Positions 24,855 to 59,590 of a DNA stretch of 64,000 bases are shown piece after piece; position 1 is the first letter of the stretch; each line of letters opens with the position of its first letter. The position numbers and the translations under genes are program-made. Below the pieces are notes generated by a model. That model was not told where the DNA came from. It searched no databases and saw only the letters and a program-made list of their open reading frames with translations. Origin of the DNA: Actinomycetota bacterium (GTDB lineage: Bacteria; Actinomycetota; Acidimicrobiia; Spongiisociales; ZC4RG35); NCBI GenBank assembly GCA_052390035.1, contig JBQTHI010000044.1, positions 6,797 through 70,796 of the forward strand, read 5' to 3'.

Positions 24855-24897
24855 CGCCGAACGGAGTCCCCGGGGACAGGCGGATAGCCTGATCAGG

Positions 24898-27030
24898 ATG
24901 GAACCTGTCCGCCGATGGCGGCGTCTGAGTCGTATGCGTCGCATGGTGTTGTTGGCCGCCGTCTCTCTCCTGACCCTGGCGGCTATTCCGTTGGCACAGG
25001 CCCAGGTAGCGCAGGCCCAACCTCCGGTTCGGATGGAGGCCAAGGTCGGGTTGGCCGGTTATGTGCAGATACAGCGGCCGGTGGAAGTGGCGGTAACCAT
25101 CGAAGCCGACGTTCTCTTTGCCGGATGGCTCGAGGCCAGGACCGGCGACACGGTGGTCAGGGTGGCGGTCGAAGTTCCCGCCGGGGGAGCGAAGACTTAC
25201 GACCTCCGCCTTCCGCCGCCGGTCGGTTCGGTATCGACCCGACTGCGCCTCTTTGATAGGAACGGCTCGGGTCGAGATGGTTCAGGCCCCCTGGCAACCA
25301 CCAACCTTCAGCTCAGAACCGTCGACGGTGAGACCCTGGTGGCAGTGGTGGGGCGGGACGAGCTCGTCAAGACCATCGACAGCGCCGAGGTGGCAGTCAC
25401 TGGTGACCCAGTCGTGGCCGCCGCCATCGACTTGGCTCGCCTCGAGACTGGAGTGGAGCCCGCCAACTATCTGGTGTTAGATCAGCCAGGTGAACTCCCC
25501 GAACCGGTGGTGTTGTGGCTCGACCGAGGAGGACGACTGGTCATCGATCGCCAAGACTCGGGTTCTTTGGGGCTGGCGTTCGGTCGGGTAATTCCTGATG
25601 GCGAGAGGTCCCTCTTGTCATACGGACAAGGCTGGGTGATTGCCGTCCCCGACATCGGCGCACTTGATGTGGTCGGGTGGTCCCAGGTGCTGGTGCCGAC
25701 TCCGATCCAGCTGGCACCCCGCGATGTCTGGCAAAGCCCTGAGCTCCAATTGATGCAGTCGGCAACGAGCGGCGGCGACCAGCGGGTCCCCTCGTTGCCG
25801 TGGTTGCTCGGTGCTCTGGTTGGCTACGCCATCCTGGTCGGCCCCGTCAACTTCCTGATCTTGCGGCGCCTCGGTCGTCGAGAGCTGGCCTGGGTCACGG
25901 TCCCGGCTCTGTCGCTCTTGGCTGTGGTCGGGTTTTGGCTGGCGGGACGTCAGCGGCTCGAGGAGACGATCATCAATCATGCGAGCCTCGTCATATCCGC
26001 CCCGGACCGGAGCGAAGGTCGGACCGCCCTGGTATTAGCGACCGGCTCCGGGGGCGAACGAACGGTGGCCGTACCCGCTGACTGGGAGGCCTACCCGGCG
26101 TCGGTGACGATCGATGGAGGCATGCCGGTGGCATCGGCGTTGGCTGAGTCCGTTGCTCCGGGCGAATTCCGATTCACGCTTGAACAACTCGGATCGGCCG
26201 GCGTGCAGAGTTGGTGGCAGAGCGCAGCGTTTGACCTTCCTCAAGTCCTGCCCTCCGCCTCGGACAATCGGCTAAAGATCGACGTCAACAACCAAACGCC
26301 CCATGAATTTTGGGCATGGGGACTGGTGGGCCGGGGACGGGTCACGGTCGCCCCCCAGGCCCTGGCGCCCGGTGAGGCGGGTGGCGTGTCGGTGTTACCC
26401 GGTCAAAGTGGCGCCAACGAGTTCGGGTCGGTCGGCGACGCCGTCATCAATAGCCGCAATTTGTGGAACGACCCGTTCATTTGGAACAAACTTGGTGCTC
26501 TCTCCTACGCGGCTTCCTCGCTCCTAGCCCAATACGACAGCTACTTCTTCGGTTACACCGACCAGATGTCGGTTTCCGTGATTGTCGATGGGCGCGAGGT
26601 AAAGGCGCCCGGGTCGACTCTCGTGCTGATACCGGTCGACGCCGGCGCCATCTTCGGCTCCCAGGCAGGCAGCGTCACCGCCCACTTAATCAGCACCGGT
26701 GACGCCAGTTGGGTCGACATCGGACCCGGTTATCTGTCGGTTTCAACCCAGCAGATGACTATCGGTTGGGAGGTGCCCCAGGACATTGCGACCGACCCCA
26801 CCCTGGCCGTGTCAAACATGTTCGGCGAGATCCCGCGAGTGCTCGAGGCTTACAATTGGGACGCCGACGCTTATGAGGAGGTCCTCGGGGGCCAGTCCCT
26901 CGACCTCGGCTTGTACCGAAGCCCAGTCGGCCAGGTGCTGGTACGGGCCAGCGCCGGCGACGGCGACGTTGAGGGCCAGTTCATCGAGCAGGCTATGTCA
27001 CCCTACGGCTTCAGTCTGGTCTGGCCGTGA
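24898..27030 (+). CDS. large exported/membrane protein of unknown function (first gene of ABC-2/MoxR operon)
   Basis: ATG 24898 gives a signal peptide (MEPVRRWRRLSRMRRMVLLAAVSLLTLAAIPLAQA). There are two predicted internal TM helices. The stop overlaps the next start (GTGA). Confidence 0.5.
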   Translation: MEPVRRWRRLSRMRRMVLLAAVSLLTLAAIPLAQAQVAQAQPPVRMEAKVGLAGYVQIQRPVEVAVTIEADVLFAGWLEARTGDTVVRVAVEVPAGGAKTYDLRLPPPVGSVSTRLRLFDRNGSGRDGSGPLATTNLQLRTVDGETLVAVVGRDELVKTIDSAEVAVTGDPVVAAAIDLARLETGVEPANYLVLDQPGELPEPVVLWLDRGGRLVIDRQDSGSLGLAFGRVIPDGERSLLSYGQGWVIAVPDIGALDVVGWSQVLVPTPIQLAPRDVWQSPELQLMQSATSGGDQRVPSLPWLLGALVGYAILVGPVNFLILRRLGRRELAWVTVPALSLLAVVGFWLAGRQRLEETIINHASLVISAPDRSEGRTALVLATGSGGERTVAVPADWEAYPASVTIDGGMPVASALAESVAPGEFRFTLEQLGSAGVQSWWQSAAFDLPQVLPSASDNRLKIDVNNQTPHEFWAWGLVGRGRVTVAPQALAPGEAGGVSVLPGQSGANEFGSVGDAVINSRNLWNDPFIWNKLGALSYAASSLLAQYDSYFFGYTDQMSVSVIVDGREVKAPGSTLVLIPVDAGAIFGSQAGSVTAHLISTGDASWVDIGPGYLSVSTQQMTIGWEVPQDIATDPTLAVSNMFGEIPRVLEAYNWDADAYEEVLGGQSLDLGLYRSPVGQVLVRASAGDGDVEGQFIEQAMSPYGFSLVWP

Positions 27031-27968
27031 GCATCGCCACTCTGCAGGGGGTCGAGAAACGTTATGGGCCGGTCCATGCACTGGCTGGGGTCGATCTGGA
27101 GGTGCCCGAAGGATCGGTCTTTGGGTTGATCGGACCCAATGGAGCAGGCAAGACCACCTCGATGTTGCTGATCAGCACCCTCCTATCTCGGGATGCAGGA
27201 GACATGCAGGTATTGGGGGTCGACCCGCAGATTGACCCCCGCGGAGTGCGCCGCCAACTCGGTTACATGCCCGACTTCTTCGGTTTCTACGACCATCTGA
27301 CGGTGGTCGAATATCTCGACTTCTTCGGCGCGGCCTCCGGGGTGCCGGCCGCCAAACGCCCGGCGGTCATAGCCGACTTGCTCAGTCTTGTCGATCTCGA
27401 CGACCGGGCCGGTGCCGACGTCAACAGTTTGTCCCGAGGAATGAAACAACGCCTGTCACTCGCCCGAGCACTGGTCCACGACCCAGCACTGTTGGTTCTC
27501 GATGAGCCCGCTTCGGGCCTCGATCCCCGCGCCAGGGTCCACCTGCGGGAGTTGATCGCCGAGCTCTCCCGGATAGGAAAAACGGTGGTCATCTCCTCAC
27601 ATATCCTCTCCGAGCTGGAAGGCATCTGCACTCACATGGCGGTGGTCGACCAGGGCAAAGTCAAAGCGCAGGGAAACATCGACGAAATCCGTCGCACGAT
27701 GACAGCCAGCCGTCGGATCTCGGCACGGGTTCCCGACGAGCAGGTCGACGGGACCGCCGAGCTGATCGGGGGTCAGCCGTCAGTGAGCGAGGTCGAGGTG
27801 GAGCGGGGTTTGGTGCGCTTCGTCTTGTCCGGCGACGAGTCCGACTCGGCTCGCCTGCTGGCCGTGGTGGTCGCCGGCGGATGGAGGGTCGCCGATTGGC
27901 GCATGGAGGTAGCCGGTCTCGAGGAGCTCTTTTTGCAAATCACCTCCGAAGAGAGTCCCTCCTCATGA
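27027..27968 (+). CDS. ABC transporter ATP-binding protein
   Basis: Walker A GPNGAGKTT, the signature LSRGMKQRLSLARAL and Walker B LLVLDEP are present. Confidence 0.85.
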   Translation: MSIATLQGVEKRYGPVHALAGVDLEVPEGSVFGLIGPNGAGKTTSMLLISTLLSRDAGDMQVLGVDPQIDPRGVRRQLGYMPDFFGFYDHLTVVEYLDFFGAASGVPAAKRPAVIADLLSLVDLDDRAGADVNSLSRGMKQRLSLARALVHDPALLVLDEPASGLDPRARVHLRELIAELSRIGKTVVISSHILSELEGICTHMAVVDQGKVKAQGNIDEIRRTMTASRRISARVPDEQVDGTAELIGGQPSVSEVEVERGLVRFVLSGDESDSARLLAVVVAGGWRVADWRMEVAGLEELFLQITSEESPSS

Positions 27969-28981
27969 TGAATCCGGTCTTGAGGCGGGAACTACTCGAA
28001 CGATTCCGGACCCGCCGGGCCGCCTGGTTCATGTTCGCTTGGACCCTTGGCATCGGTCTGGTGGGGTACGTCACCTACCTGGTCAGCCAACAGTTTGCCA
28101 ACGGCAACTTTGGGATGGGCCGTCTGATCGCCACCGGGTTCATGGGCCGTTTCTTGTTCCAGGGGATGATGATGCTGATGATGAGCGCCGTGATCATGGT
28201 GGTCCCTGGAGTCACGGCCCTGGCCATCGTTTCGGAAAGAGAAAGACAGACCCTTCCGCTGCTCCAGGTCACTCAGCTCTCCAATTACCAGCTGGTGCTG
28301 GGCAAGCTGAGCTCGTCGATGTCCTATTTCCTGCTGTTGCTTTTGGCGGTCGCCCCGGTGATGGCACTGCCGCTGTTGTTTGGGGGGATGAGCTTGCTTG
28401 ATGTGTTGGCGGCCCTGGCCATCATGGTGGCGACGGCGGTCATGCTCGGGAGCGTGGCCTTGGCGATCTCCTCGCGGGCAAAGTCAAGTCGTGGAGCCGT
28501 AGCCGGGAGTTATGGCTTCGCTTTCATCATCGCCTTCTTCACGATCGCCGTGCTGCTCGCCGAGTTTCTGATCGTGCGGCCGGCTGGCGGGGCGCTGGTG
28601 CCACCCCGAGGCCGCGAGGTGTACAGCTCGTGGCTGAACCCCTACGTCGCCATGGTTGATGCCGTCGAGGCGCCCCTGGCGGTGAGCACTGCGTTTCTTC
28701 CCACCCCTTTTGCCCCGATCGACGCCCTGCTCTATGCCCGCCAGGGAGTATCCGGGGGGTTCGGGTTCGGAGGGTTCTTCGGAGGTGAGATCGGCGGCAA
28801 TTTGATAGTCGATGACTCGGGCCGGCAATTGATCCGCATGCGGCGAGGGCCAGTTTGGCTGCGCACTCTGATCATCTACGCGGCCATCAGTGCGTTGGCA
28901 TTGATGCGCGCCGCTCGGGTGTTGCGGGCGCCGGCTACGGCCGCGTTCCGTCTGCGGAGGAGCCGAAGTGTGGCGGCCTGA
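27965..28981 (+). CDS. ABC-2 family permease (NosY/COG1277-like)
   Basis: The start overlaps the upstream stop (ATGATG). It has 6 TM segments and the SERERQTLPLL motif typical of ABC-2 'multi-copper enzyme maturation' permeases. Confidence 0.7.
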   Translation: MMNPVLRRELLERFRTRRAAWFMFAWTLGIGLVGYVTYLVSQQFANGNFGMGRLIATGFMGRFLFQGMMMLMMSAVIMVVPGVTALAIVSERERQTLPLLQVTQLSNYQLVLGKLSSSMSYFLLLLLAVAPVMALPLLFGGMSLLDVLAALAIMVATAVMLGSVALAISSRAKSSRGAVAGSYGFAFIIAFFTIAVLLAEFLIVRPAGGALVPPRGREVYSSWLNPYVAMVDAVEAPLAVSTAFLPTPFAPIDALLYARQGVSGGFGFGGFFGGEIGGNLIVDDSGRQLIRMRRGPVWLRTLIIYAAISALALMRAARVLRAPATAAFRLRRSRSVAA

Positions 28982-30566
28982 ACCGGGCCTTCCGCCGACC
29001 GTGGCGGATCTGATCCGCGCCGCTCGGGCGCGCATGACCTGGTCTGGCTTGGCTCTTCGAGCCGTCACGTTGGTTGGGGTGGCGGCGGCCCTGGCTGCCG
29101 TCCTGGTAGCGGTTGGCCGTTTGGTGGCCCTGCCGTGGACCGAACCGGTTGCAGCCGGGCTCATTGGGGCCGGGGCGATGGCGGCGGTGCTAACGGGTCT
29201 TTTCCGGCCGGTTTCCCCCCAGGCGGCGGCGCTGGCCGTAGATCGTCGCCTGGGCGGATTTGACCGGATTTCGACGGCGCTCGAGCTGTCGAGCGGCGGT
29301 CCGAGCGGAGATCCCGAGGCTCGCCAGGTGGAGGCCGCCCGGGTGTGGGCGCAGAACCGAAGCGTGGCCTCCCTCGGTCGCCTATTTCCCCGCGGGTGGT
29401 TGCCGCGTCTGTCGGTGGGTGCGGTGGCTGCAACCCTCTTGCTGGCCCTGGTGCCTGCGGCCACCGACGTCTTGCTGGCCCGACATCGCGCCGAGCAACA
29501 GCTGATCGAGGAGGAGATCGAGCGGCTTACCGAGCACGCAGAAGAGGCTCCTCCCGAGGTCGCCGAGATGCTCGAACGACTGATCGAGGAGCTGGCCCGG
29601 GCAGAGAGCCTCGACCAGGCCATCTCCTCGCTGGGCGAGGCACGACAACAACTGGCCGAGCTGGCCGACCCGGCCGAGCTGGCTGCCCGCACCGCCTTGG
29701 CCGGCCTGGAACAGCGCCTCGAACAGAACCCGATCGCCGAGGGCGGCTCGGCCTCCGAACAACTGCGAGAACTCGCCCGACAGCTGAACGCGACCTCCCC
29801 GGAGGCAATGGCGGCCGCCGCCGCCGAATTGGCGGCTCGCGCCGGTGACCTGGCTGGTGTGGACCAGGAGCTATCCGATGCCCTGGCTGTAGCCGCTGCC
29901 GCTCTCGAACAGGCCGCTCTCGATCCTGGCGCGCTTGGAACCGCCGCTGTGGCTTTGGGTGAGGCGGCGTCTCAGCTTGATCGAGCGAACGCCGAGGCGG
30001 CCGAGGCAGCGGCCAGGGCTGACGTGCAGGCTCAGGTGAGAGACGCTCAGGCTCGCCTGGCCCAAGCGCGCGACGCCGGGACGGGACAAGCAACCGGAGA
30101 AGGTCAGGGTCAAGGGCAAGGCCAGGGTCAAGGGCAAGGTCAGGGCCAGGGGCAGGGCCAGGGGCAAGGCCAGGGGCAAGGGACTGGTGCAGGGGGCGGT
30201 GGAGGTGGGCAGGGCGCCGGTGGATCGAGCGGAAGCGGCGGCACCCAGGGTGGGACCGGTTCGGGAAGCGTCGGTCACGGCACCGGTGATCACGATCCGG
30301 TGCTCGATCCAGCTCGCAGTCAGATCTTCGACCCAGTTGAACATGGCCTCGGCGACGAGGTCAGGGTTGACCTCGGCCCGGGCAACACTCCCGGCGAGCC
30401 GACCGGCAGCACCAGCGGGCAGGGGGTCGAAAACTTGCCTCTCACCGGCTACGCCGACCGATTCACCCAATACCGCCAGGCGGCGTTGGATTCGCTCGAT
30501 CGTCTGGTTATCCCCACCGACCTCCAGGATCTTGTCCGCCGATATTTCACCGAGTTGGAGCCCTAG
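28968..30566 (+). CDS. membrane-anchored coiled-coil protein with (GQ)13 / Gly-rich low-complexity region
   Basis: GTG 28968 follows a GGAGG RBS. The protein has N-terminal TM helices, a long Ala/Glu/Leu-rich coiled coil, (GQ)13, a Gly-rich segment and a conserved-looking C-terminal 60 aa. Confidence 0.55.
   Translation: MWRPEPGLPPTVADLIRAARARMTWSGLALRAVTLVGVAAALAAVLVAVGRLVALPWTEPVAAGLIGAGAMAAVLTGLFRPVSPQAAALAVDRRLGGFDRISTALELSSGGPSGDPEARQVEAARVWAQNRSVASLGRLFPRGWLPRLSVGAVAATLLLALVPAATDVLLARHRAEQQLIEEEIERLTEHAEEAPPEVAEMLERLIEELARAESLDQAISSLGEARQQLAELADPAELAARTALAGLEQRLEQNPIAEGGSASEQLRELARQLNATSPEAMAAAAAELAARAGDLAGVDQELSDALAVAAAALEQAALDPGALGTAAVALGEAASQLDRANAEAAEAAARADVQAQVRDAQARLAQARDAGTGQATGEGQGQGQGQGQGQGQGQGQGQGQGQGQGTGAGGGGGGQGAGGSSGSGGTQGGTGSGSVGHGTGDHDPVLDPARSQIFDPVEHGLGDEVRVDLGPGNTPGEPTGSTSGQGVENLPLTGYADRFTQYRQAALDSLDRLVIPTDLQDLVRRYFTELEP
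30102..30179 (+). repeat. in-frame hexanucleotide repeat (GGNCAR)x13 encoding (Gly-Gln)13
   Basis: Read directly: ggtcagggtcaagggcaaggccagggtcaagggcaagg... Confidence 0.85.
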
Positions 30567-30622
30567 ACCCAGATGAGTAGACCCAGATGAGTAGACCCGA
30601 ATGAGTACACCCAGATGAATTC
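30567..30622 (+). repeat. four tandem copies of a 14-bp repeat (ACCCAGATGAGTAG) bridging the upstream stop codon and the moxR start codon
   Basis: Copies sit at 30567, 30581, 30595 (ACCCGAATGAGTAC) and 30609 (ACCCAGATGAATTC). The moxR ATG (30615) lies inside copy 4. Each copy carries an ATG. Confidence 0.8.
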
Positions 30623-31583
30623 ACCAGAGGAGTTCGCCCGTTCTCTCAACGCCGCTCGGGCCGAGATCGGCAAAGTCATCGTCGGCCAGAAGGATCTCGT
30701 CGACACCGTTCTCACCGCCGCGTTGTGCGAAGGCCATGTCCTACTGGAAGGTGTGCCTGGCCTCGGGAAGACCAAACTCCTGGCGACGCTGGGCCGAGTT
30801 TTGGACGTCGAGTTCGGGCGGGTTCAATTCACCCCTGATCTCATGCCTGCCGACATCCTCGGCACCAAGGTTTTGACCGGAAACGACTTCAAGTTCCACG
30901 AAGGTCCGATCTTTGCCAACCTGGTGTTGGCCGACGAAATCAATCGGGCAACTCCCAAGACCCAGTCGGCCCTGCTCGAAGCAATGCAGGAGCGGAGAGT
31001 GACCCTGGGAGGGGAGACCCACGCTCTCCCCCGACCCTTCCTGGTGATGGCGACTCAGAATCCGATCGAGCAGGAAGGCACCTACCCACTCCCCGAGGCT
31101 CAACTCGACCGGTTCCTTTTCAAGGCGCTCGTGAGCTTCCCGCCAGCCGACGACGTGGTTGAGATTCTCCGCCGCACCACCGCCGGCCACGAAGCCCAAC
31201 CCGATCCGGTGATCGATGGGGCAGCGATCATCGCCATGTCGGAGTTCGTGAGGAGCCTCCCCGCCGGGACCCACCTACTTGCCTACGCCGCCACCCTGGT
31301 CGAGGCAACCCACCCGGAAAGTGCCAAGGCTCCGGAAATGGTGCGGCGTTATGTCAGGTTCGGCGCCAGCCCCCGCGGCGCCCAGGCATTGGTCATGGGC
31401 GGGAAGGCCTTCGCCTTGATCGACGGCCGGCCCAACCTCGCCGCCGAAGACATATGGCGGGTGGCCCCGATGGCGCTCCGGCATCGACTGGTGCTCGGCT
31501 ACGAGGCGCTCGCCGACGGGATCAAAGCCGACGAGATCGTCACCGAGGTCCTCGGCGCTTATCCCGCTCCGATTGCCCGTTAG
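30615..31583 (+). CDS. MoxR-family AAA+ ATPase
   Basis: Walker A GVPGLGKT, Walker B LADEINRA and the MoxR N-terminal EIGKVIVGQ motif are present. Confidence 0.85.
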   Translation: MNSPEEFARSLNAARAEIGKVIVGQKDLVDTVLTAALCEGHVLLEGVPGLGKTKLLATLGRVLDVEFGRVQFTPDLMPADILGTKVLTGNDFKFHEGPIFANLVLADEINRATPKTQSALLEAMQERRVTLGGETHALPRPFLVMATQNPIEQEGTYPLPEAQLDRFLFKALVSFPPADDVVEILRRTTAGHEAQPDPVIDGAAIIAMSEFVRSLPAGTHLLAYAATLVEATHPESAKAPEMVRRYVRFGASPRGAQALVMGGKAFALIDGRPNLAAEDIWRVAPMALRHRLVLGYEALADGIKADEIVTEVLGAYPAPIAR

Positions 31584-32453: not shown

Positions 32454-32469
32454 CTCGGCGGCTCGGGCT

Positions 32470-34278: not shown

Positions 34279-36974
34279 GGTTCGCCCATCCCTGGTGGTT
34301 GGTGGCCATACCCCCCGTTCTGGGGCTGACCTGGCTAGTCGCCCGGCGCGGGGGACGAGCGGTTTCACGGCGTCAACATCGGTGGGCGCTCGGGATTCGC
34401 CTTGGCGGGTTGCTGCTCTTGGTCACTGCCGCCGCCCAACCGATCGTCACCAGATCGGTGGACGATCGTGCGGTCCTGTTTCTGCTTGATCGGTCTGCTT
34501 CGGTATCGGATTCGGCCCGCGCCGCGCAGGAGGCTTTCCTGAGTGCGGCGCTGGCCGAAGGCAGAGCCGATGGGCGGACCGCGGTGGCGGTGTTTGGCCG
34601 CGACAGTCGACTCGACTCGGCGTTCACCGTTGACAGGTCCGGAGGCCCGATCAGGACGATCCCTGACGACTCGGCGACCGACATCGCTTCGGCCCTGCAA
34701 GCCGCCGCTTCGTTGATGCCCTCGGAGGGTTCACGGCGCATCGTCCTCCTCACCGATCTGGTCCCCACTACGGGCGACGTCGGCCCGGCGATCCGTCAGC
34801 TGGCAGAACAAGGCGTGGCGGTGGATGTCGTCGAGCTGGCGTCCGCTCGAACCCCCGATGCCCTGGTCGAATCGGTGATCCTGCCTCCAGCAGTGCGCGA
34901 GGGTGACACCGTGCCGGTTACGGCGGTGATTCGCTCCAATCAGGCAGGGTCGGCCGTGGTGGCGGTGAGATCCGGCGATGGTGACGAGCAGCGGATTCCC
35001 GTCCAGGTGGTGGCTGGGCGCAACGAGGTATCGCTCGAAGTCAACGCGGTGGGAGTCGGGTTCCTCCCGGTTTCGATCCAGGTCGAAACGGAGTTCGATA
35101 CGAGACCGGAGAACAATCGGGCGGAGGGGATCACCCGAATTCTCGGCCCTGCCCGAGTGGCGGTGGTGGAGGGAGTCGCCGGAGAGGCCGAGGCGCTGGG
35201 TGAGGCGCTCGTCGCCGGAGGAATCGAGGCCGACCTTCGGCGTTCGATCCCCACGGAGGGGGAGCTGCTCAGCTATGACGCGGTCGTCCTGGTGAATGTC
35301 GATCAGCCGGGACTGGTGGAATCGGAGAACCTCTCGGCGTTTGTTGAAGATCTCGGGCGTGGACTGGTGGTTGTTGGTGGCGACCGGGCTTTTGGGCTTG
35401 GTGACTACCACGAGACGCCGCTTGAGGCGGTGCTTCCCGTGAGTTCGAATCCGGACGACCTGGTGAGGCGTCAGCCGGTGGCGGAGGTGCTGGTCATCGA
35501 CTCCTCCGGGTCGATGGGTGCCTGTCACTGCAACATGGGCCAGGCCGCCGAAGGTGGGGTGGTGAAAACCGATATCGCCAAGGCCGGAGCGGAGCTCGCC
35601 ATCAACGCCCTCACCGACGATGATCGGGTTGGTGTGCTGGCGTTCTCATCAGGCACGGACTGGGTGATTCCCCTGGCGCCCCGCTCAACCATCACCGACC
35701 CGGCGGGGGCTCTCGGGGTGATCACTCCCAATGGTGACACCGAGATCTCCAACGCCCTTGAGGTGGCGCTTGACGAGCTGGCCGGCGCTCCCGAGCAGCT
35801 CCGCCACATCGTCCTCTTTACCGACGGGTGGGATCCGAGCGATGCTGCCCTATTGCCAATGGCGCGGGAAATCGCCGATGCCGGAGTGACTCTTTCGGTG
35901 TTGGGCACCGGGGAGGGTCCGGGCACGACTCTGAGCCGGATGGCCGAGCTGGGCGGCGGACGTTTTTACGCCGGCACGGACCTGGAGGCGGTTCCGGAGG
36001 TCTTCGTCGAGGAGACTTTGATCGTTGCCCGCAATCTGGCCGTCGAGGGGACCTTCTTTCCGATCCTCGCTGCCCCATCTCCCGTCACCCAGGATCTGAC
36101 CGCCTCCCCACCCCTGCTCGGTTATGTGCTGACCAAGGCCAAAGGAAGTGCTTCGCTCCTGATGGAGATCGGGCAGGCCGACCCGCTTCTTGCCACCTGG
36201 CAGCGCGGGCTGGGGCGGGCCACCGTCTGGACGTCGGATGCCACCGTCCGGTGGTCGAGCCAGTGGGTGGACTGGGAGGAGTATGCGGACTTCTGGGGTC
36301 GTTTGGTAAGAGACGTGTTGCCAGCGGGGCGGGAGAATCCGCCAGCCGTTCACGTCGAAGACGGCCGGCTGGTCATTTCCTACCAACAGCAGGGCACCGA
36401 CCTCGACGCCTCCGCCTCGGCCCGGGTTCGCCGGCCCGACGGCGAGGTAATCGAAGTCCCCATGGACCGGGTGAGCGGCTCCGATTTCTCCGCCCGGGTA
36501 GCCCTGGGCCCGGCCGGCGCCTATTGGGTCGCCGTCACCGTTGACAATCCCGATGGCTCGCAGATTGTTTCCGGAGCAGGGGCAGTTTCCGCCTATGAAG
36601 AGGAGTTCGCCTTCCGCGAGCCGGATCCGGCGTTGGGGGCCGCCATCACGACGATCACCGGCGGGAGGCTCAACCCCGGACCAGCAACCGTGTTCGATCC
36701 GGCCCCCGTGCGGGGACGGGCCGAAGTTTCCTTCTGGCCGTGGTTGGCCGCCGCCGCTCTGGCTCTCTTCCTCCTCGACGTGGCCTTGAGCCGGCTGCTG
36801 CTCGGGGAGGGTGACGCCCAGGCCTGGCGGGAAGGGCTGACTTCAACCGGCCGTGGCAGGGAGAGGCGGCGGGTGGCGCGGGCAGTTGAAGAGGCCACGA
36901 CCAGTCGGGAGGCACCGCCGGTTCTCTCCGACTCGGAGACCCTCGAACGCCTGATGCGCCGTAAACGACGATGA
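34275..36974 (+). CDS. large membrane protein with two vWA domains and a class-I glutamine-amidotransferase-like domain
   Basis: The ATG overlaps the upstream stop (ATGA). There are two DxSxS-type vWA motifs (LLDRSASVSD; VIDSSGSMG), a GATase1-like segment, and a C-terminal TM plus Arg-rich tail. Confidence 0.6.
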   Translation: MRFAHPWWLVAIPPVLGLTWLVARRGGRAVSRRQHRWALGIRLGGLLLLVTAAAQPIVTRSVDDRAVLFLLDRSASVSDSARAAQEAFLSAALAEGRADGRTAVAVFGRDSRLDSAFTVDRSGGPIRTIPDDSATDIASALQAAASLMPSEGSRRIVLLTDLVPTTGDVGPAIRQLAEQGVAVDVVELASARTPDALVESVILPPAVREGDTVPVTAVIRSNQAGSAVVAVRSGDGDEQRIPVQVVAGRNEVSLEVNAVGVGFLPVSIQVETEFDTRPENNRAEGITRILGPARVAVVEGVAGEAEALGEALVAGGIEADLRRSIPTEGELLSYDAVVLVNVDQPGLVESENLSAFVEDLGRGLVVVGGDRAFGLGDYHETPLEAVLPVSSNPDDLVRRQPVAEVLVIDSSGSMGACHCNMGQAAEGGVVKTDIAKAGAELAINALTDDDRVGVLAFSSGTDWVIPLAPRSTITDPAGALGVITPNGDTEISNALEVALDELAGAPEQLRHIVLFTDGWDPSDAALLPMAREIADAGVTLSVLGTGEGPGTTLSRMAELGGGRFYAGTDLEAVPEVFVEETLIVARNLAVEGTFFPILAAPSPVTQDLTASPPLLGYVLTKAKGSASLLMEIGQADPLLATWQRGLGRATVWTSDATVRWSSQWVDWEEYADFWGRLVRDVLPAGRENPPAVHVEDGRLVISYQQQGTDLDASASARVRRPDGEVIEVPMDRVSGSDFSARVALGPAGAYWVAVTVDNPDGSQIVSGAGAVSAYEEEFAFREPDPALGAAITTITGGRLNPGPATVFDPAPVRGRAEVSFWPWLAAAALALFLLDVALSRLLLGEGDAQAWREGLTSTGRGRERRRVARAVEEATTSREAPPVLSDSETLERLMRRKRR

Positions 36975-37011
36975 CCGTGTCCGAGCGAGAGGGCGGTTAC
37001 CTACCATCCGC

Positions 37012-38112
37012 ATGGTGACCGCAAAGCGACGTCAGGCTGAGAAGCCCCCCGCGTGGCTCTCCCGGGCTGTGATAATCGTCGTCGGGATCCTGGCACTGGC
37101 GGCGGCGGCGGGCTTGGTCCTTTATCGCATCCGCGGGCTGTTCTATATGCTTTTCCTCGCCACCTTCGTGGCAATTGCTCTTGAACCGGCCGTGCAGCGA
37201 CTCGTCAGGCGTGGGTGGAAGCGTTCCCGGGCAACCCAGCTCGTCTTTTTTGTCGCCGCCCTGCTTTTCGCCGGGTTCCTGGTTGCCCTCATCCCGGTGT
37301 TCGTTGCCCAGGCGGCCCGTCTCATCGAGACCGTGCCGCTTTATCTCGAAGACCTACAGCAGCTTGCCTCCACCTACTTTCAAATCGAGCTGGTCGATCC
37401 GGACATCACCGGACAATTCGAGGACCTGGGAGGCCTTTTGCGCCAATATGCCTCGGAGGTGGCGGGAGGAATCTTCGCCATCGGCAACACCGTCTTCGGT
37501 GCCGTCTTCCAATTGGTCACCGTGACCCTGTTCGCCTACTACCTGGTCGCTGTAGGTCCGACCTGGAGACGGGCGCTCTTGTCAACCCTGCCGCCCGAGC
37601 GTCAGCGCGAGGCGCTCAACATCTGGGAGGTATCGGTCGCCAAGACCGGGGGATACGTCTATTCGCGCCTGGTGCTGGCCGTCGTTGCCGGGATATTCAC
37701 CTTCCTGGTGCTGATCATCCTGCGGGTCCCGTCGGCCGCCGCCCTGGCCGTATGGATGGGGGTGCTCTCCCAGTTCGTTCCGGTCATCGGTACCTACGTC
37801 GGGCTCGTATTGCCGGGTCTGGCTGCCCTGGCCTTAAGTCCTCTCACGGCGCTGTGGGTCATTGTTGCCTTGGTCGGCTACCAGCAGATAGAAAACTATC
37901 TGATCGCCCCCAGGGTTACCGCCCGTACGATGGCGATGCACCCGGCGGTCACCATCGGAGCTCTGATCGCTGGAGCGAGCCTCCTCGGGGCGATGGGAGC
38001 GGTGCTGGCCCTCCCCGTGGCGGCGACCATCCAGGCATTGATCTCGACAACACTCCAGCGCCATACCCTGGTGGACTCGCCCTACCTCGAGGATCTGGTT
38101 GAGCGGGTTTGA
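37012..38112 (+). CDS. AI-2E family transporter (PerM/UPF0118)
   Basis: 8 TM segments. The YQQIENYLIAPRV motif is present. Confidence 0.8.
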   Translation: MVTAKRRQAEKPPAWLSRAVIIVVGILALAAAAGLVLYRIRGLFYMLFLATFVAIALEPAVQRLVRRGWKRSRATQLVFFVAALLFAGFLVALIPVFVAQAARLIETVPLYLEDLQQLASTYFQIELVDPDITGQFEDLGGLLRQYASEVAGGIFAIGNTVFGAVFQLVTVTLFAYYLVAVGPTWRRALLSTLPPERQREALNIWEVSVAKTGGYVYSRLVLAVVAGIFTFLVLIILRVPSAAALAVWMGVLSQFVPVIGTYVGLVLPGLAALALSPLTALWVIVALVGYQQIENYLIAPRVTARTMAMHPAVTIGALIAGASLLGAMGAVLALPVAATIQALISTTLQRHTLVDSPYLEDLVERV

Positions 38113-38181
38113 AGTTCCACTAACTGTTGGACCTGCAAGAAGCGGTAGCTCGTCGGGGGCCCGGTTTAGCATGATCAGCCG

Positions 38182-39018
38182 ATGTCGACCCACGTCGAAG
38201 AAAGACGCCGTCTCAGCGCCTGGCCTTTGATCGTCAACTCGATCTTCGCCTCCACGTTTGGCATCTTCATGGCGATGTTGATCGACTCACTGGGCCGGGC
38301 CATCCTCGCTCTCGTGCTCGAGCAGGGTCCGGTCGTCTTTCACGACCGGGTGGAGCTCGCCGGTGACAACCCCGTGACCCTGGCGGGTGGCGCCATAGCT
38401 GCCCTCGTTGCCGGAGGCCTTTTCCTCGCCGTATATCCGGGCAGTACCCGCCACGACGCCTCTCGTCTGGCGGTGCTTTGGCTGATCCTGCATTGCCTGC
38501 GGCAGGGATTTGTCCCCCTGGCCCTCGCGGCGGTTGACGCCGATTCCGATGTTGCAGTTGCCCTCGCCACCTTCGAGCTCCCCTCGGGAATCAATACCGT
38601 GGTGGGGGCGGCCGGAGCGATCGGCCTGCTGCTGGTCTCGCTGGCTGCCGCCCCGGCATTTCTTGCTTTTTCCACCACCCGGCGGGAGATCAGCACCCCA
38701 ACCCGGCGGGTTGCCTACGTCGCCAGGATCGGCCTCCTCCCCGGCCTGGTCAGCGGATTGCTGGCCGCGGTTGGATTCTTCGTCTTGAATTCGGACAGCG
38801 GCCTGGTCACAACTTTGCCCTTCTTTGGCGCTTTCACCATCGCCACCCTCCTCGCCGCTCCGGGAACGCGTACCGTCCAAGCGGATCAGAGCGCCACCAC
38901 CCAGAAGTTCTCGTGGGGACTCTTGCTCGCGGTGGCAGTCATCTTCTCGCTCTTCTATTACGCCCTGGCGCGAGGCATCCCGATCCCCCCCGACCCGGAC
39001 GGCTTCTTCGCGACATGA
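38182..39018 (+). CDS. hypothetical polytopic membrane protein
   Basis: 278 aa with about 7 hydrophobic helices and no recognisable motif. It is the first gene of a tightly spaced six-gene plus-strand run. Confidence 0.45.
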   Translation: MSTHVEERRRLSAWPLIVNSIFASTFGIFMAMLIDSLGRAILALVLEQGPVVFHDRVELAGDNPVTLAGGAIAALVAGGLFLAVYPGSTRHDASRLAVLWLILHCLRQGFVPLALAAVDADSDVAVALATFELPSGINTVVGAAGAIGLLLVSLAAAPAFLAFSTTRREISTPTRRVAYVARIGLLPGLVSGLLAAVGFFVLNSDSGLVTTLPFFGAFTIATLLAAPGTRTVQADQSATTQKFSWGLLLAVAVIFSLFYYALARGIPIPPDPDGFFAT

Positions 39019-39043
39019 CCGCTTCCTGTTGATCCAGCCGCGG

Positions 39044-39553
39044 ATGATTGGGGCCGCCGTCCTCACCATCTCCGATGGCGTCGCCGCCGGTGAGCGACAG
39101 GACATCTCGGGAGACTTGCTGGCGGGTCTGCTCCAAGCCGATGGTTTTGAAGTCGTCCAACGGAGGATCGTTGCCGACGACCGCCGCCTGATAGCTGCCG
39201 GCTTGACGGAGCTTTGTGGTCAAGCTCGCCTCGTGGTGACCACCGGTGGCACCGGCCTCGGCCCCCGCGACGTCACGCCCGAAGCAACCCGTGACGTGAT
39301 TGATCGGGAGGCTCCCGGGATCGCCCAGCTAATGATGGCGGCGGGACTGGCCGCCACTCCCTTGGCTTCGCTCTCCCGGGCGGTGGTGGGCACCCTGGGC
39401 GAGGCTCTGGTCGTGAACCTCCCCGGTAACCCACGAGCCGTGGAAGAAGCGCTGGCGGCGATCGCCCCGGTCCTCCGTCACGCCCTCGACCTGATCGCCG
39501 GTGATACGGCGCACGGACCGCAAACCCAGGGTTCCAGCCAACGATATCGTTAG
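39044..39553 (+). CDS. mog: molybdopterin adenylyltransferase / molybdenum cofactor biosynthesis protein MogA/MoaB
   Basis: The motifs TGGTGLGPRDVTPEA and GNP are present. The start is trimmed to ATG 39044. Confidence 0.7.
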   Translation: MIGAAVLTISDGVAAGERQDISGDLLAGLLQADGFEVVQRRIVADDRRLIAAGLTELCGQARLVVTTGGTGLGPRDVTPEATRDVIDREAPGIAQLMMAAGLAATPLASLSRAVVGTLGEALVVNLPGNPRAVEEALAAIAPVLRHALDLIAGDTAHGPQTQGSSQRYR

Positions 39554-39597
39554 TTGCAGCCCCGAGAATGGGACGGCCATACAGCTAGCCTGCCGTC

Positions 39598-40650
39598 GTG
39601 GCCGCCGACGATCCGCAGATCTTTGCTGCCATCTCTGACTGGACCGATCGGGGGGTGGCCTTTGCCCTGGCTACGGTGATCGGGGTGCGCGGCTCCACGT
39701 ACCGAGGCCTGGCCGCTCGCCAGCTGATGGCAGCCGACGGCACCTCGGTAGGTACCGTTTCGGGTGGCTGCCTTGATCAGGATCTGACCCTCGTTGTTGG
39801 GAAGGTGTTGGCGACCGGCCAGCCGACCAAGATCGAGTTCGACCTCACCGCCGACGACGAAGCAGTGTGGGGGTGGGGCATCGGTTGCAACGGCGCCACC
39901 GAACTGCTGGTCGAACCGGCCGACGGTGCCCGTCGGCTCGTCGAGGCCGTGGAGTCTCATCCCGCCGCCGTCCTCCACGTCTTAAGCGGGGAACACCTTG
40001 GTGAACATTGGTCGCTACCGGCCGCCGATCCCGCCTGGGGTGAGCTGGTGGCGGCGGCCCACGCCGACGGACGGAACCGACGGGTCACCATCGACGAGGT
40101 CGACTACCTCCTAGAGATCGTCGCCCGCAAGCCCCGACTGGTCGTCTGCGGCGCTGGTCATGACGCCGTGCCGCTGGTGAGCCTCGGCTCCGAGCTTGGA
40201 TTCGAGGTGACGGTGGTCGACGACCGTCGCGCCTTCCTGACGCGGGAGCGATTTCCACACGCCGCCGCGCTGGTCCATTGCGCTCCCTCCGAGCTGGCCG
40301 CCCACGTCCCCATCGACCCGGCTACCTCGGTGGTGGTCATGTCCCACAACTATGTGCGGGATGTCGACTTCATCGGTTCGCTGCTTGGACGGCGGGCGGG
40401 ATACATAGGCTGCCTGGGCCCTGGAGAGAGACTCGAGCGGATATTGAAGGACCTCGAAGCATCGGCTCGGGTGATATCCCCCGAAGATCGCCAACACCTC
40501 CATGGTCCCGCCGGGCTCGACCTCGGCGCCGACGGCCCGGTGGAGATCGCCTGGTCGGTGCTCTCCGAGATCCTCGCGGTTCGCCGGCACAGGCAAGGCG
40601 GTTTTCTGGTCGACAAGAAAGGGCCTGCCGGCCTGAGGCGGATACCGTAA
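39598..40650 (+). CDS. xdhC: XdhC/CoxI family molybdoenzyme maturation factor
   Basis: The architecture is XdhC N-terminal domain plus Rossmann domain (LVVCGAGHDAVPL). Confidence 0.7.
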   Translation: MAADDPQIFAAISDWTDRGVAFALATVIGVRGSTYRGLAARQLMAADGTSVGTVSGGCLDQDLTLVVGKVLATGQPTKIEFDLTADDEAVWGWGIGCNGATELLVEPADGARRLVEAVESHPAAVLHVLSGEHLGEHWSLPAADPAWGELVAAAHADGRNRRVTIDEVDYLLEIVARKPRLVVCGAGHDAVPLVSLGSELGFEVTVVDDRRAFLTRERFPHAAALVHCAPSELAAHVPIDPATSVVVMSHNYVRDVDFIGSLLGRRAGYIGCLGPGERLERILKDLEASARVISPEDRQHLHGPAGLDLGADGPVEIAWSVLSEILAVRRHRQGGFLVDKKGPAGLRRIP

Positions 40651-40664
40651 CCAGAGGAGGCACG

Positions 40665-41216
40665 GTGGAAATTTCAGAGGAGTTCGAGGTGGCTCGGACC
40701 GTCGCGGCGGTATGGGACATCTTTCAGGACGTACCGGCGGTCGCTCAATGCCTCCCCGGTGCAACCCTCACCGAGGACAAAGGTGGCAATGTCTACGCCG
40801 GCAATGTTTCGGTCAAACTCGGGCCGATAGCCACCACCTTCGAAGGAGAGGCGGTCATCACGCCCGATGAGGCCAGCCGCCGGGCTTTGATAGATGGCAA
40901 GGGGGTTGATCGGCGCGGCGGTAGCCGAGGGCAGGTGAAGGTCACCTATGTGTTGACCCCCACCGACGGCGGAGGGACGAAGGTGGCGATCCGCGCGGAC
41001 GTCACCATCGCCGGGCCGGCGGCACAGTTCGGACGCACCGGTCTCATACAGGAGATGAGCCGGCGGCTAATCGCCGACTTTGTGAGCTGTCTGGAGGCCA
41101 AACTGGCGGCACCGACTGAGGACGCGGCCGCGGCCATCAAAGCCGAACTCAGGCCTCTGCGGCTCTTTTGGGCAAGTCTGCTGGCCTGGTTGAAGAGGCT
41201 CTTCGCCCGCAGATGA
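40665..41216 (+). CDS. coxG: CoxG-like SRPBCC protein (carbon monoxide dehydrogenase subunit G family)
   Basis: GTG 40665 follows a GGAGG RBS. The fold is SRPBCC/CoxG. The stop overlaps the next start (ATGA). Confidence 0.65.
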   Translation: MEISEEFEVARTVAAVWDIFQDVPAVAQCLPGATLTEDKGGNVYAGNVSVKLGPIATTFEGEAVITPDEASRRALIDGKGVDRRGGSRGQVKVTYVLTPTDGGGTKVAIRADVTIAGPAAQFGRTGLIQEMSRRLIADFVSCLEAKLAAPTEDAAAAIKAELRPLRLFWASLLAWLKRLFARR

Positions 41217-43186
41217 GGTCGCTCTTCGGCTGGCTGAGCGGCCATTGGCCGCCCCGCAGTTCGGTGTTGACTCTGCTCTTGTTGATGGCGGCCTGCGCCG
41301 GCGTGGGTGAACCGCCGCCCGAGTCGGCGGGCAATCGAACGGTCGTCGAGATGTTCGACAACACGTTCTCCTCATCAGAGATCCATATAAAGGTTGGGTC
41401 CGAACTGAGCTTCGTGGGTGCCGGGCGCAACCCACACAACGCGGTGGCGTCAGACGGCTCGTGGACGACCGAGTCGGTGTTTGGCTCCCTTGAGCAGCTG
41501 GCCGGGGAGGAGGCGGTCCTTTCCTTTGAGCGCCCTGGCGAATACGTGTTCTTTTGCACCTTTCATGGGACGGCCGAAGGGGTCGGGATGGCGGCCCGGC
41601 TGGTGGTCGGAGATGCCGGCGCTTCGCCCGCCGCCCAAGGGGTGTCTGATACCAAGGCTCCCGCCCAATGGTCGGGCAACACGCTTCGGGTGCCGGAAGA
41701 CCAGCCGACGATCCAGCAAGCCGTTGACATGGCACTACCAGGCGACCTGGTCCTCATCGGGGCCGGGCTATATCAAGAGGCGATCGAAGTGAACACGCCC
41801 GGTCTGGTCATCCGGGGAGTCGACCGCAATCGGGTAGTGATCGACGCCGGTAATCGAGCCGAGAACGTGATCGATGTCTACAGCGACGGAGTAGCCGTTG
41901 AGAACCTCACCGTCAAAAACGGCATCGCCAACGGCGTCTACTGGGGAGCGGTGAGAGGATACCGGGCTTCGTATGTCACCGCCATCGACAACGGCGACTA
42001 CGGAATTTACGCGTTCGACTCGTCGGATGGGCTCTTCGAATATTCCTACGCCTCGGGTTCACCCGACTCGGGTTTCTATATCGGCCAGTGCGATCCTTGC
42101 CAAGCGGTGATTGATCACGTCGTCTCCGAATGGAATGGGTTGGGCTACTCGGGCACCAATGCCTCCGGTGAGCTTTACATCATCAACAGCGTCTGGCGCT
42201 ACAACGCCGCCGGCATCGTCCCCAACACCCTCGACTCCGAGCTCCTCCCCCCGTTTCACGACGTCACCATCGCCGGGAATGTCATCCACGACAACAGCAA
42301 CCGGAAGGCTCCCGTCAAGTCTGCTCCGTGGTCGGGTTTGGGCAACGGGATCATTCTCGCCGGAGGAAACAGCTCGACCGTGATTCGCAATCTGGTCTTC
42401 AACCATGAGGTCAACGGGATCGCCGTCACTCCCAACCTCGATCGCAACTTCTGGCGGAGCGCCCACAACCGGATCGAAGGCAACGTCGTCGAGGGTTCGG
42501 GCCGCGCCGACCTGGCCCTCGCCGGGCCGGCCGGGCCAGGCAACTGCTTCACCGGGAATCGGGCGACATCTTCCTTCCCGGTAGGTCTTCAGGCTTTCGC
42601 CACCTGCGACGGGGTGCGGCTGCCCGTCCTCTATGAACTGGCCGGGTCGACCGAACAGCTTGGCCGCGTCATGGAGAACGGTCTCGGGCTTCGACCGGAT
42701 AATCCGGTTGGATCCGCCCCCAAGCCCGGACCTCAGGAGAACATGCCGGGCGGGGCCGATGCGCCGGTGAACCCGGCAGTAGACGTTTTCGAAAGCCATC
42801 CGGTAGATCTGGGGGGGATTGTGGTCCCGGAGATGCCCGAAAGACTCACCATCGACCAACCGAAAGGAATCACGGTGTTCGGGATGTTGCTTGGCTCGGT
42901 GACGTCGGTGTTCTTCGGCCTCTATGCCTACTTCTTGCCGTTTGTCCTCTGTGCGGCGTGGGTCACCATCGCCCTCTGGGACCTAGCAAGAAGTGGCCGC
43001 CGGCCAGCCGCCGCCATCGCATGGTCGGCGGCGATCCTTCTGATCCCCTTCGTCGGGGTGATCCTCTATTACATCCTGGGCCGCTCCGCCATCCCTCGAT
43101 GGCAGCGGACGGTGCTGCTCGCCGGCGGTATCGGGGCGTACTTGGTGATCCTCGCCGTTGGAGCTCTCATCGGTGGCGTCGTCTAG
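41213..43186 (+). CDS. lipoprotein with N-terminal cupredoxin domain, NosD-like right-handed parallel beta-helix (CASH) repeats and C-terminal double-TM anchor
   Basis: The lipobox is LLMAAC. Type-1 Cu ligand spacing is H...C-x2-H-x7-M (NPHNAV...FFCTFHGTAEGVGM). Repeated NGI/NxV beta-helix units resemble NosD. Two C-terminal TM helices are present. Confidence 0.65.
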   Translation: MRSLFGWLSGHWPPRSSVLTLLLLMAACAGVGEPPPESAGNRTVVEMFDNTFSSSEIHIKVGSELSFVGAGRNPHNAVASDGSWTTESVFGSLEQLAGEEAVLSFERPGEYVFFCTFHGTAEGVGMAARLVVGDAGASPAAQGVSDTKAPAQWSGNTLRVPEDQPTIQQAVDMALPGDLVLIGAGLYQEAIEVNTPGLVIRGVDRNRVVIDAGNRAENVIDVYSDGVAVENLTVKNGIANGVYWGAVRGYRASYVTAIDNGDYGIYAFDSSDGLFEYSYASGSPDSGFYIGQCDPCQAVIDHVVSEWNGLGYSGTNASGELYIINSVWRYNAAGIVPNTLDSELLPPFHDVTIAGNVIHDNSNRKAPVKSAPWSGLGNGIILAGGNSSTVIRNLVFNHEVNGIAVTPNLDRNFWRSAHNRIEGNVVEGSGRADLALAGPAGPGNCFTGNRATSSFPVGLQAFATCDGVRLPVLYELAGSTEQLGRVMENGLGLRPDNPVGSAPKPGPQENMPGGADAPVNPAVDVFESHPVDLGGIVVPEMPERLTIDQPKGITVFGMLLGSVTSVFFGLYAYFLPFVLCAAWVTIALWDLARSGRRPAAAIAWSAAILLIPFVGVILYYILGRSAIPRWQRTVLLAGGIGAYLVILAVGALIGGVV

Positions 43187-59546: not shown

Positions 59547-59590
59547 TTGCCGATCATACGGACACAACCGCCCGATGCTTAGATCGCCCG

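Follow-up and report, generated by a model that had tools for sequence, protein, structure and literature searches.

The genes considered here have their closest described counterparts in several systems. The cox cluster of Oligotropha (Afipia) carboxidovorans (coxMSLDEFG...I) includes accessory genes for CoxD, CoxE, CoxF, and CoxG, whose roles in CO dehydrogenase have been described (PMC4240915). CoxG brings the enzyme to the membrane but is dispensable for cluster assembly, and the XdhC proteins stabilize and insert sulfurated molybdenum cofactor (Moco) (PMC4240915; PMC2997495). NosDFY, which matures N2O reductase, combines an extracytoplasmic beta-helix protein with an ABC ATPase and an ABC-2 permease. 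The bat genes, which in Leptospira are clustered with moxR, have homologs throughout the spirochaetes, and the original bat operon was from Bacteroides fragilis (PMC3557215). The stretch of DNA analyzed here, referred to as the window, is a 64,000-nt segment (positions 6,797 to 70,796) of contig JBQTHI010000044.1 from the metagenome-assembled genome of an Actinomycetota bacterium of the class Acidimicrobiia. As stated in the initial annotation and confirmed by Pfam, it encodes MoxR, DUF58, two vWA proteins, an ABC-2 pair, XdhC, CoxG, MogA, and a cupredoxin, all on the plus strand. That annotation proposed that these genes form a single metal-cofactor maturation island.

The window probably carries three adjoining, co-directional units within the conserved chromosomal backbone of one Acidimicrobiia lineage, and not one functional island. 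A Bat-type operon extended by an ABC-2 exporter is found beside a cox-type accessory operon that is coupled to an uncharacterized copper lipoprotein. The biochemical roles given below for their products are predictions from what is known of their families.

MogA-XdhC-CoxG operon and CO dehydrogenase genes

The right unit (38182-43186) consists of genes for a protein with seven transmembrane (TM) helices (7-TM), MogA, XdhC, CoxG, and a cupredoxin/beta-helix lipoprotein, joined by ATGA overlaps and short gaps. The MogA-XdhC and XdhC-CoxG gaps measure 44 nt and 14 nt, with no cox remnant. The two operons had been described as separated only by an AI-2E transporter and one membrane protein; the transporter gene does lie between them, and the membrane protein is the 7-TM product of the right operon's own first gene.

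Orthologs of the window MogA, XdhC, and CoxG, with 54-68% identity, are found in relatives that carry cox genes (L015, L092/93, and L095/96). In L015, whose beta-helix protein is 67% identical to that of the window, the order is membrane protein, MogA, CoxM, CoxS, CoxL, CoxF with a YHS-like tail, XdhC, CoxG, beta-helix protein, and multicopper oxidase. Its CoxL has the form I loop AYRCSFR, the same as in O. carboxidovorans, and is 54% identical to the CoxL of that organism. L092/93 encodes MogA (60% identical to the window protein), CoxD, CoxE, CoxM, CoxS, CoxL, CoxF, and XdhC (62%), and L095/96 encodes MogA, XdhC (56%), CoxM, CoxS, CoxL, CoxF, CoxG (65%), and the beta-helix protein (68%). The coxMSL-coxF cassette thus occupies two different positions in the same gene frame. 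It is bracketed by orthologs of the window genes; therefore, MogA, XdhC, and CoxG of the window are orthologs of genes that frame form I cox sets. A metagenome scan with the CoxL protein of L015 yielded 80 coxL-anchored loci, and CoxG orthologs (62-66% identity) follow coxL-coxF in L015, L095/96, L101, and L147. The proposed Mo-Cu link is supported for MogA-XdhC-CoxG, though indirectly, through the relatives, and is not supported for the MoxR/vWA/ABC-2 operon.

The window itself encodes no Mo-hydroxylase subunit, CoxD, CoxE, copy of CoxF, or multicopper oxidase within its 64 kb, and in this sense the earlier term "orphan" is apt. A search of the whole window finds no match to CoxM, CoxS, CoxL, CoxE, or multicopper oxidase at E≤0.1, and CoxD gives only generic AAA+ similarity at the MoxR gene (E=0.004). 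The genes specific to copper insertion (coxD, coxE, and coxF) are exactly those that are missing. Comparison by BLASTP and Pfam with the reference cox cluster, from plasmid pHCG3 of O. carboxidovorans OM5, shows that both loci encode a member of the CoxG family and one of the XdhC family, to which CoxF and CoxI belong. Unlike the reference, the window has no coxM, coxS, coxL, coxD, coxE, or coxF; its gene order is different, MogA and the 7-TM gene are added, and the cupredoxin/beta-helix lipoprotein gene is coupled to coxG. The relatives share more with the reference, namely, a CoxF ortholog (37% identity; E=5.6e-45 for the L015 protein), CoxD (~54%), and CoxE.

The right unit probably represents the accessory part of a form I Mo-Cu CO dehydrogenase locus that lacks the enzyme and the copper-insertion genes. 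MogA is predicted to adenylate molybdopterin, XdhC would hold sulfurated Moco and insert it into an apoenzyme of the xanthine oxidase family, and CoxG would tether that enzyme to the membrane. The absence of coxMSL and coxD, coxE, and coxF implies either a client enzyme encoded at another place in the genome or a relic locus left after a deletion. In metagenome surveys of Acidimicrobiia, a MogA-XdhC-CoxG set that lacks coxMSL should not be taken as a sign of CO oxidation. The locus is a variable slot in which the cox structural and copper-insertion genes come and go, and it could be used to trace how atmospheric CO oxidation has been acquired and lost in a lineage that is abundant in soil.

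The window XdhC is about equidistant from CoxF (25% identity, E=9e-18) and CoxI (25%, E=1.4e-15) of O. carboxidovorans. Its assignment as CoxF was rejected, as it is no closer to CoxF than to CoxI; the CoxF ortholog is the XdhC/YHS protein of L015. As in the XdhC/PaoD chaperones, both XdhC domains are present, and the best NCBIfam model is "XdhC family aldehyde oxidoreductase maturation factor"; unlike in those chaperones, the score (149 bits versus a cut-off of 350) is not that of an equivalog, and no client is encoded nearby. The window CoxG, with a GTG start and a GAGGAGG ribosome-binding site, is 25% identical to CoxG of O. carboxidovorans (E=3.9e-6).

The 7-TM gene is linked upstream of MogA in 41 of 60 related loci, and 7-TM, MogA, and CoxG genes are each linked to the beta-helix gene in 40-41 of these 60. 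Wherever it is found, the 7-TM gene is directly upstream of MogA. Its 76 homologs are confined to Acidimicrobiia and are mostly unnamed or "hypothetical," with three bearing generic JGI labels. S20, P50, W100, and R176 are invariant in an alignment of 16 sequences, and the conservation of D35, H104, and R107-Q108 reaches 90% or more in one of 41 sequences.

In this actinobacterial form I cox lineage, the CoxF ortholog, encoded directly after coxL (5949-6830 in L015 and ~2.35-2.45 kb past the coxL start in L087-L166), has a C-terminal YHS-like tail (DPVCGM...FC..SC) that scores 29.4 bits with the Pfam YHS model, just under the cut-off of 30.3. Such a YHS-tailed CoxF is found in 71 of the 80 coxL loci, and the C[GA]M motif is present in 41 of 57 complete copies. 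In contrast to these CoxF proteins, the reference CoxF of O. carboxidovorans has no YHS match. A metal-binding tail would fit the proposed role of CoxF in copper delivery; no paper on a YHS-tailed CoxF was found in the literature.

Linkage of the two operons

One genome per species was scanned with an alignment of the beta-helix protein, which gave 80 loci, and homologs of the window proteins were placed by tblastn; linkage was counted in the 46 species-level loci with at least 9.9 kb of upstream DNA. Eight of these loci carry BatA/vWA genes at a distance of up to 10 kb from the beta-helix gene, and the other 38 do not. All eight come from the closest relatives of the window, with beta-helix proteins at least 63% identical, and the left array is seen in none of the 36 loci in which this identity is below 61%. 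A single maturation island is not what these counts describe. The earlier statement that the co-occurrence exceeds chance was assessed through this comparison of relatives, with no formal probability.

A second anchor, the large vWA protein, was used to inspect five other genomes (L167, L168, L169, L171, and L172). The eight-gene array is unchanged in all five, and the downstream content varies. In L169, the array is followed by AI-2E, the 7-TM gene, MogA, XdhC, and CoxG, without a beta-helix gene. In L167 and L171, it is followed by a UDG gene and 8-10 kb of LacI, sugar-ABC, and oxidoreductase genes, partly on the opposite strand, and only then by the 7-TM gene and MogA. Unrelated or mobile-element genes follow it in L168 and L172, where no MogA, XdhC, CoxG, or beta-helix gene is found within 10 kb downstream. 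The AI-2E gene, present in six of the eight species loci that carry the left array, as well as in L001 and L169, is replaced by UDG in L004, L167, L168, and L171, and L095 has in its place an unassigned stretch, an ABC ATPase gene, and a 4HBT thioesterase gene, the latter two on the minus strand. The AI-2E transporter is therefore encoded by a variable spacer gene. Since linkage is restricted to close relatives and the genes that follow the array differ, the adjacency of the two units is backbone synteny within one clade and not a conserved functional linkage. The initial annotation had named two findings that would speak against an island: the MoxR module is indeed of the common Bat type, and the two operons, rather than never being linked, are linked in close relatives but only in these.

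The adjacency could also be taken to mean that both operons encode one pathway for the maturation of a Mo-Cu or copper center, with MoxR and vWA acting as CoxD and CoxE and the ABC-2 pair and the beta-helix protein acting as NosFY and NosD. The window, L001, and the eight species loci have the two units next to each other and co-directional, and in the window no terminator-like site separates them; in L095, a vWA gene ends ~3.6 kb upstream of the right operon with its cox genes; and L015 and L095 have no CoxD or CoxE in the available sequence, which leaves room for a substitute. These points are offset by the 38 loci without the array, by its unrelated or distant followers in the other genomes, and by the opposite-strand genes that separate the units in L004 and in L095 itself. 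Moreover, genuine CoxD and CoxE genes adjoin MogA in L092, and Bat-type loci are found in spirochaetes and Bacteroides (PMC3557215).

Family assignment of the MoxR, vWA, and ABC-2 proteins

The MoxR and vWA proteins of the window had been taken as equivalents of CoxD and CoxE. The reference CoxD scores 49.5 bits with AAA_5 and 25.8 bits, under the cut-off, with AAA_3, and the reference CoxE scores 287.9 bits with VWA_CoxE (PF05762). The window proteins are of the AAA_3, BatA, and DUF58 types. MoxR is 25% identical to CoxD over 170 aa (BLASTP, E=7.6e-4), and the vWA and DUF58 proteins have no PF05762 match at E≤0.01, the best BLASTP match to CoxE being at E=0.01. The MoxR gene is flanked by those for a coiled-coil membrane protein and DUF58, and neither coxL nor coxE is present in the window. 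True CoxD (50-55% identity) together with CoxE is found in 18-19 of the 80 coxL-anchored loci but is absent from the beta-helix loci and from the window. The CoxD/CoxE assignment was therefore rejected on family type and on weak or absent similarity. MoxR and vWA genes beside XdhC and CoxG should not be annotated as CoxD and CoxE; subfamily typing separates the two cleanly.

The labels "NosF/NosY-like" and "NosD-like" are likewise weak by family scores, and the analogy with NosDFY is not supported. The window does encode an extracytoplasmic beta-helix protein, an ABC ATPase, and an ABC-2 permease of PF12679. However, the beta-helix protein scores 36.6 bits against a cut-off of 300 with the NCBIfam NosD model (TIGR04247), over model positions 1-67 only, and its match to Pfam NosD is marginal (25.9 bits versus a cut-off of 23.6). 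The ABC/ABC-2 pair belongs to the other operon, ~12 kb and nine genes upstream of the beta-helix gene, and the recurrent partner of that gene encodes a two-domain multicopper oxidase. The ABC-2 permease has no match in NCBIfam and hence none to NosY; its window type is found in 0 of 86 related loci, in which the ABC ATPase has only distant matches (25-39% identity), most of them 6.7-11 kb downstream. Among NCBIfam models, the ATPase scores best with drrA (218 bits) and GldA (197 bits), in each case under the cut-off, with no Nos-specific model among the 25 best of 189 matched families. NosF/NosY identity was rejected on these grounds, the permease sharing only the broad PF12679. No N2O reductase, nosZ, or nosL is found among the window genes.

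Table 1. Genes of the locus and its surroundings, with positions in the window
Feature	Position	Strand	Match or other basis
ATP-grasp ligase	22960-24183	-	
NifU-domain protein	24243-24854	+	
743-aa membrane protein, array gene 1	24799-27030	+	Signal-anchor, two central TM helices (TM scan)
ABC transporter ATPase, DrrA/GldA-like	27027-27968	+	Pfam ABC_tran, E=1.1e-26
ABC-2 permease, six TM helices	27965-28981	+	Pfam ABC2_membrane_2 (PF12679), 35.6 bits
532-aa membrane protein	28968-30566	+	Ala/Glu-rich coiled coil, (GQ)n run (sequence, TM scan)
MoxR AAA+ ATPase, AAA_3 subtype	30615-31583	+	Pfam AAA_3, 211.7 bits, and AAA_lid_2
DUF58 protein	31584-32453	+	Pfam DUF58, 100.2 bits
BatA-type membrane protein	32470-34278	+	BatA, 42.7 bits (N-terminal double-TM), and VWA_2, 47.9 bits
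899-aa protein, last gene of left array	34275-36974	+	VWA_2, VWA, VWA_3, GATase1_like (two VWA domains)
AI-2E family transporter	37012-38112	+	Pfam AI-2E_transport, 191 bits
278-aa 7-TM protein, first gene of right operon	38182-39018	+	No Pfam or NCBIfam match
MogA/MoaB-family molybdopterin-binding protein	39044-39553	+	MoCF_biosynth, 112.9 bits; TIGR00177, 114 versus 85.35; ATG start
XdhC-family Moco chaperone	39598-40650	+	Pfam XdhC_CoxI and XdhC_C
CoxG-family SRPBCC protein	40665-41216	+	Pfam COXG (PF06240), 71.3 bits versus cut-off 22.2
Cupredoxin/beta-helix lipoprotein	41213-43186	+	Copper-bind, Beta_helix, NosD, PLDc_N
AHSA1-PDZ-DinB fusion	43211-44425	+	AHSA1/SRPBCC, PDZ, DinB/mycothiol-transferase-like (Pfam)
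HD_5 and Big_9 protein, downstream backbone	45221-46870	-	
PDH E1, downstream backbone	46949-49681	-	
Radical SAM protein, downstream backbone	51188-52546		
ABC ATPase and two ABC-2 permeases, downstream backbone	52612-55870		
GPAT, downstream backbone	57258-59624	-	

Bat-type operon

The left unit (24799-36974) comprises eight plus-strand genes with stop/start overlaps, as seen from Pfam and from reading the sequence. Its MoxR/vWA/ABC-2 content is as initially annotated; its true beginning is at 24799 and not at 27027, and the 743-aa and 532-aa membrane proteins, missing from the earlier gene list, also belong to the conserved array. The stop of the 743-aa gene overlaps the start of the ABC ATPase gene at 27027, the ATPase stop overlaps the ATG of the permease (ATGA), the DUF58 gene begins on the base right after the MoxR stop, and the ATG of the 899-aa gene overlaps the stop of the BatA-type gene, which reads from a GTG start.

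DUF58 is the usual partner of the AAA_3 subtype of MoxR. The order AAA_3 MoxR, DUF58, BatA double-TM/VWA protein, and second VWA protein, with adjacent or overlapping genes, is that of the Bat operons of Bacteroidetes and Spirochaetes. Unlike those operons, the window array is preceded by coupled genes for an ABC ATPase, an ABC-2 permease, and two membrane proteins without a family; its second vWA protein, 899 aa long, combines two VWA domains with a GATase1-like domain; and no separate BatC, BatD, or BatE-type genes, which are known for their TPR content, are found within the eight genes. Among the loci anchored on the large vWA protein, this exact eight-gene form is found only in Acidimicrobiia. 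The 899-aa protein has 534 homologs; among the best 120, identity is 54% or higher, and the source names, where given, are all Acidimicrobiia, Actinomycetota, or soil metagenome. The spirochaetes and Bacteroides that have Bat proteins are not known to possess Mo-Cu CO dehydrogenase.

The left array is a translationally coupled Bat-type envelope operon, for which no Mo or Cu link is proposed. Its AAA_3 MoxR and DUF58 proteins presumably remodel two membrane-anchored vWA proteins or load their metal ion-dependent adhesion sites (MIDAS), and these vWA proteins are encoded alongside a predicted DrrA/GldA-like ABC-2 exporter and two large membrane proteins.

The 743-aa protein probably starts near 24934. 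Neither it nor the 532-aa protein matches any family in Pfam, NCBIfam, or PADLOC, and both have counterparts at the same positions in the five other genomes, with lengths of 674-704 aa and 456-544 aa, respectively. The 532-aa protein has N-terminal TM helices, a long coiled coil, a perfect (Gly-Gln)n run of ~18 repeats, and a Gly/Ser-rich stretch. An exact-sequence look-up with the window MoxR gave no record. Membership of the array in an antiphage defense system was considered and rejected: PADLOC matches only generic ATPase models, at the ABC ATPase, with no model matching the MoxR, DUF58, or vWA proteins, and comparison of the window with the other genomes places the array in conserved backbone and not in a variable island.

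Cupredoxin/beta-helix lipoprotein and its oxidase partner

The last protein of the right unit combines a cupredoxin domain, a right-handed beta-helix with a conserved CxxC motif (C308 and C311), and a C-terminal anchor of four TM helices that includes PLDc_N; the start codon of its gene and the stop codon of CoxG overlap as ATGA. Cys43 of the lipobox is invariant, and every one of the 13 aligned sequences with a cupredoxin domain retains the copper ligands H90, C130, H133, and M141. The cupredoxin domain is thus predicted to bind type 1 copper, and the protein likely resides on the outer face of the membrane. A sequence profile of the whole protein matches PDB entries through the cupredoxin domain only. 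The beta-helix domain alone finds nothing among PDB sequences, NosD included, at E≤10, and fold searches return a generic right-handed beta-helix. A plasmid collection contains only partial matches to the beta-helix protein, from haloarchaea and Streptomyces, amid uninformative or missing annotation.

In 37 of 52 species loci, including those of Nitriliruptoria and Chloroflexota, the next gene encodes a two-domain multicopper oxidase with a Tat signal. An identity of this oxidase as NirK was rejected, since the score of 83.5 falls short of the cut-off of 296 and the top PDB match is 3gdc, a two-domain oxidase. In the closest clade of the window, the oxidase gene follows the beta-helix gene in none of five loci, which suggests that it was lost at this site in the window's lineage. 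Its slot is taken in the window by the gene for the AHSA1-PDZ-DinB fusion, 24 nt after the beta-helix gene. No homolog of the fusion is present in the 86 related loci, and the protein probably does not belong to the system.

The lipoprotein has more than 4000 homologs. The lipoprotein-oxidase pair is seen across Acidimicrobiia, Nitriliruptoria, Caldilineaceae, and others (in L002-L005 and L015-L086; for example, with the oxidase at 11660-12691 in L004), and in some loci the cupredoxin is encoded as a separate gene. No description of a pair of cupredoxin/beta-helix protein and two-domain oxidase was found in the literature. This pair and the YHS-tailed CoxF may merit separate study.

Alternative interpretations

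Several observations weigh against the view of separate units with a cox-type accessory operon. Cox genes are found inside the frame in only about four independent contigs, and distant Acidimicrobiia (52-60% identity) have the order membrane protein, MogA, CoxG, cupredoxin/beta-helix protein, and multicopper oxidase with neither XdhC nor cox genes within 10 kb, so that this core may predate CO dehydrogenase and be independent of it. From 24243 to 44425, the window has sixteen consecutive plus-strand genes with gaps of at most 70 nt and many ATGA overlaps. Because a scan of the window finds no sigma-70-like promoters, and all plus-strand terminator-like sites fall inside genes, operon boundaries cannot be set from the sequence, which leaves room for co-transcription of all three units in the window. 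The MoxR/vWA system could also act in trans on a Mo or Cu enzyme. Finally, the window alone is compatible with either a client enzyme encoded elsewhere or a relic.

The conserved core (7-TM protein, MogA, CoxG, lipoprotein, and oxidase) might form a self-contained, undescribed system to which the cox genes and XdhC were recruited later. Its five-gene order is kept in ~30 species of Acidimicrobiia (50-61% identity) in which XdhC and cox genes are absent from the surrounding 10 kb, the CoxG and cupredoxin/beta-helix genes overlap stop to start in the window, L001, and L004, and the placing of the cassette at two positions in the frame looks like recruitment rather than inheritance. Moreover, the AlphaFold model of the 7-TM protein is confident (pLDDT 81.9, pTM 0.82), yet a Foldseek search of PDB with it finds nothing at E<0.1. 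The argument is weakened in that all such loci come from one class, so the conserved order may be inherited synteny. Outside Acidimicrobiia (40-50% identity; for example, L003 and L005), the oxidase is kept in 4 of 8 loci and MogA and CoxG in none. In addition, L169 has MogA-XdhC-CoxG and L101 has coxL-coxF-CoxG without the beta-helix gene, which is also missing from most coxL loci. We know of no biochemical precedent for such a system and consider it unlikely. Were it to exist, it might provide a copper-acquisition or redox route that feeds the Mo-Cu site of a recruited form I CO dehydrogenase, and the window would hold the system without its oxidase and without the enzyme. The more specific proposal, that the core operon links a molybdopterin-binding protein with copper chemistry outside the membrane and has repeatedly recruited form I cassettes, is quite improbable.

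It is no likelier that there is no functional tie beyond the small operons, with housekeeping Moco genes next to an unrelated copper lipoprotein gene and incidental cox insertions. Such a view would agree with the conserved backbone, which has NifU upstream and PDH E1, alpha/beta hydrolase, radical SAM, ABC with two ABC-2, and GPAT genes downstream, and with the highly variable content of the slot, in which XdhC, CoxG, the beta-helix protein, the oxidase, and cox genes are present or absent depending on the relative. However, complete cox sets are nested between the MogA, XdhC, and CoxG orthologs in three arrangements, the CoxG gene is coupled to the beta-helix gene through ATGA, and CoxG and XdhC are specialized accessory families that do not belong to general Moco biosynthesis (PMC4240915). 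The pathway that would unite both operons, largely refuted by synteny and family typing, is very unlikely.

Chromosomal surroundings

In the window, as in four of the other five genomes, a NifU-domain gene adjoins the left array upstream; its open reading frame shares 56 nt with the first array gene when the latter is read at its longest. Most of the downstream backbone genes recur beside the locus in L001, L002, L004, and L169, and the region is therefore regarded as chromosomal backbone and not as a mobile island. An ATP-grasp ligase gene is found upstream of NifU both in the window and in L167.

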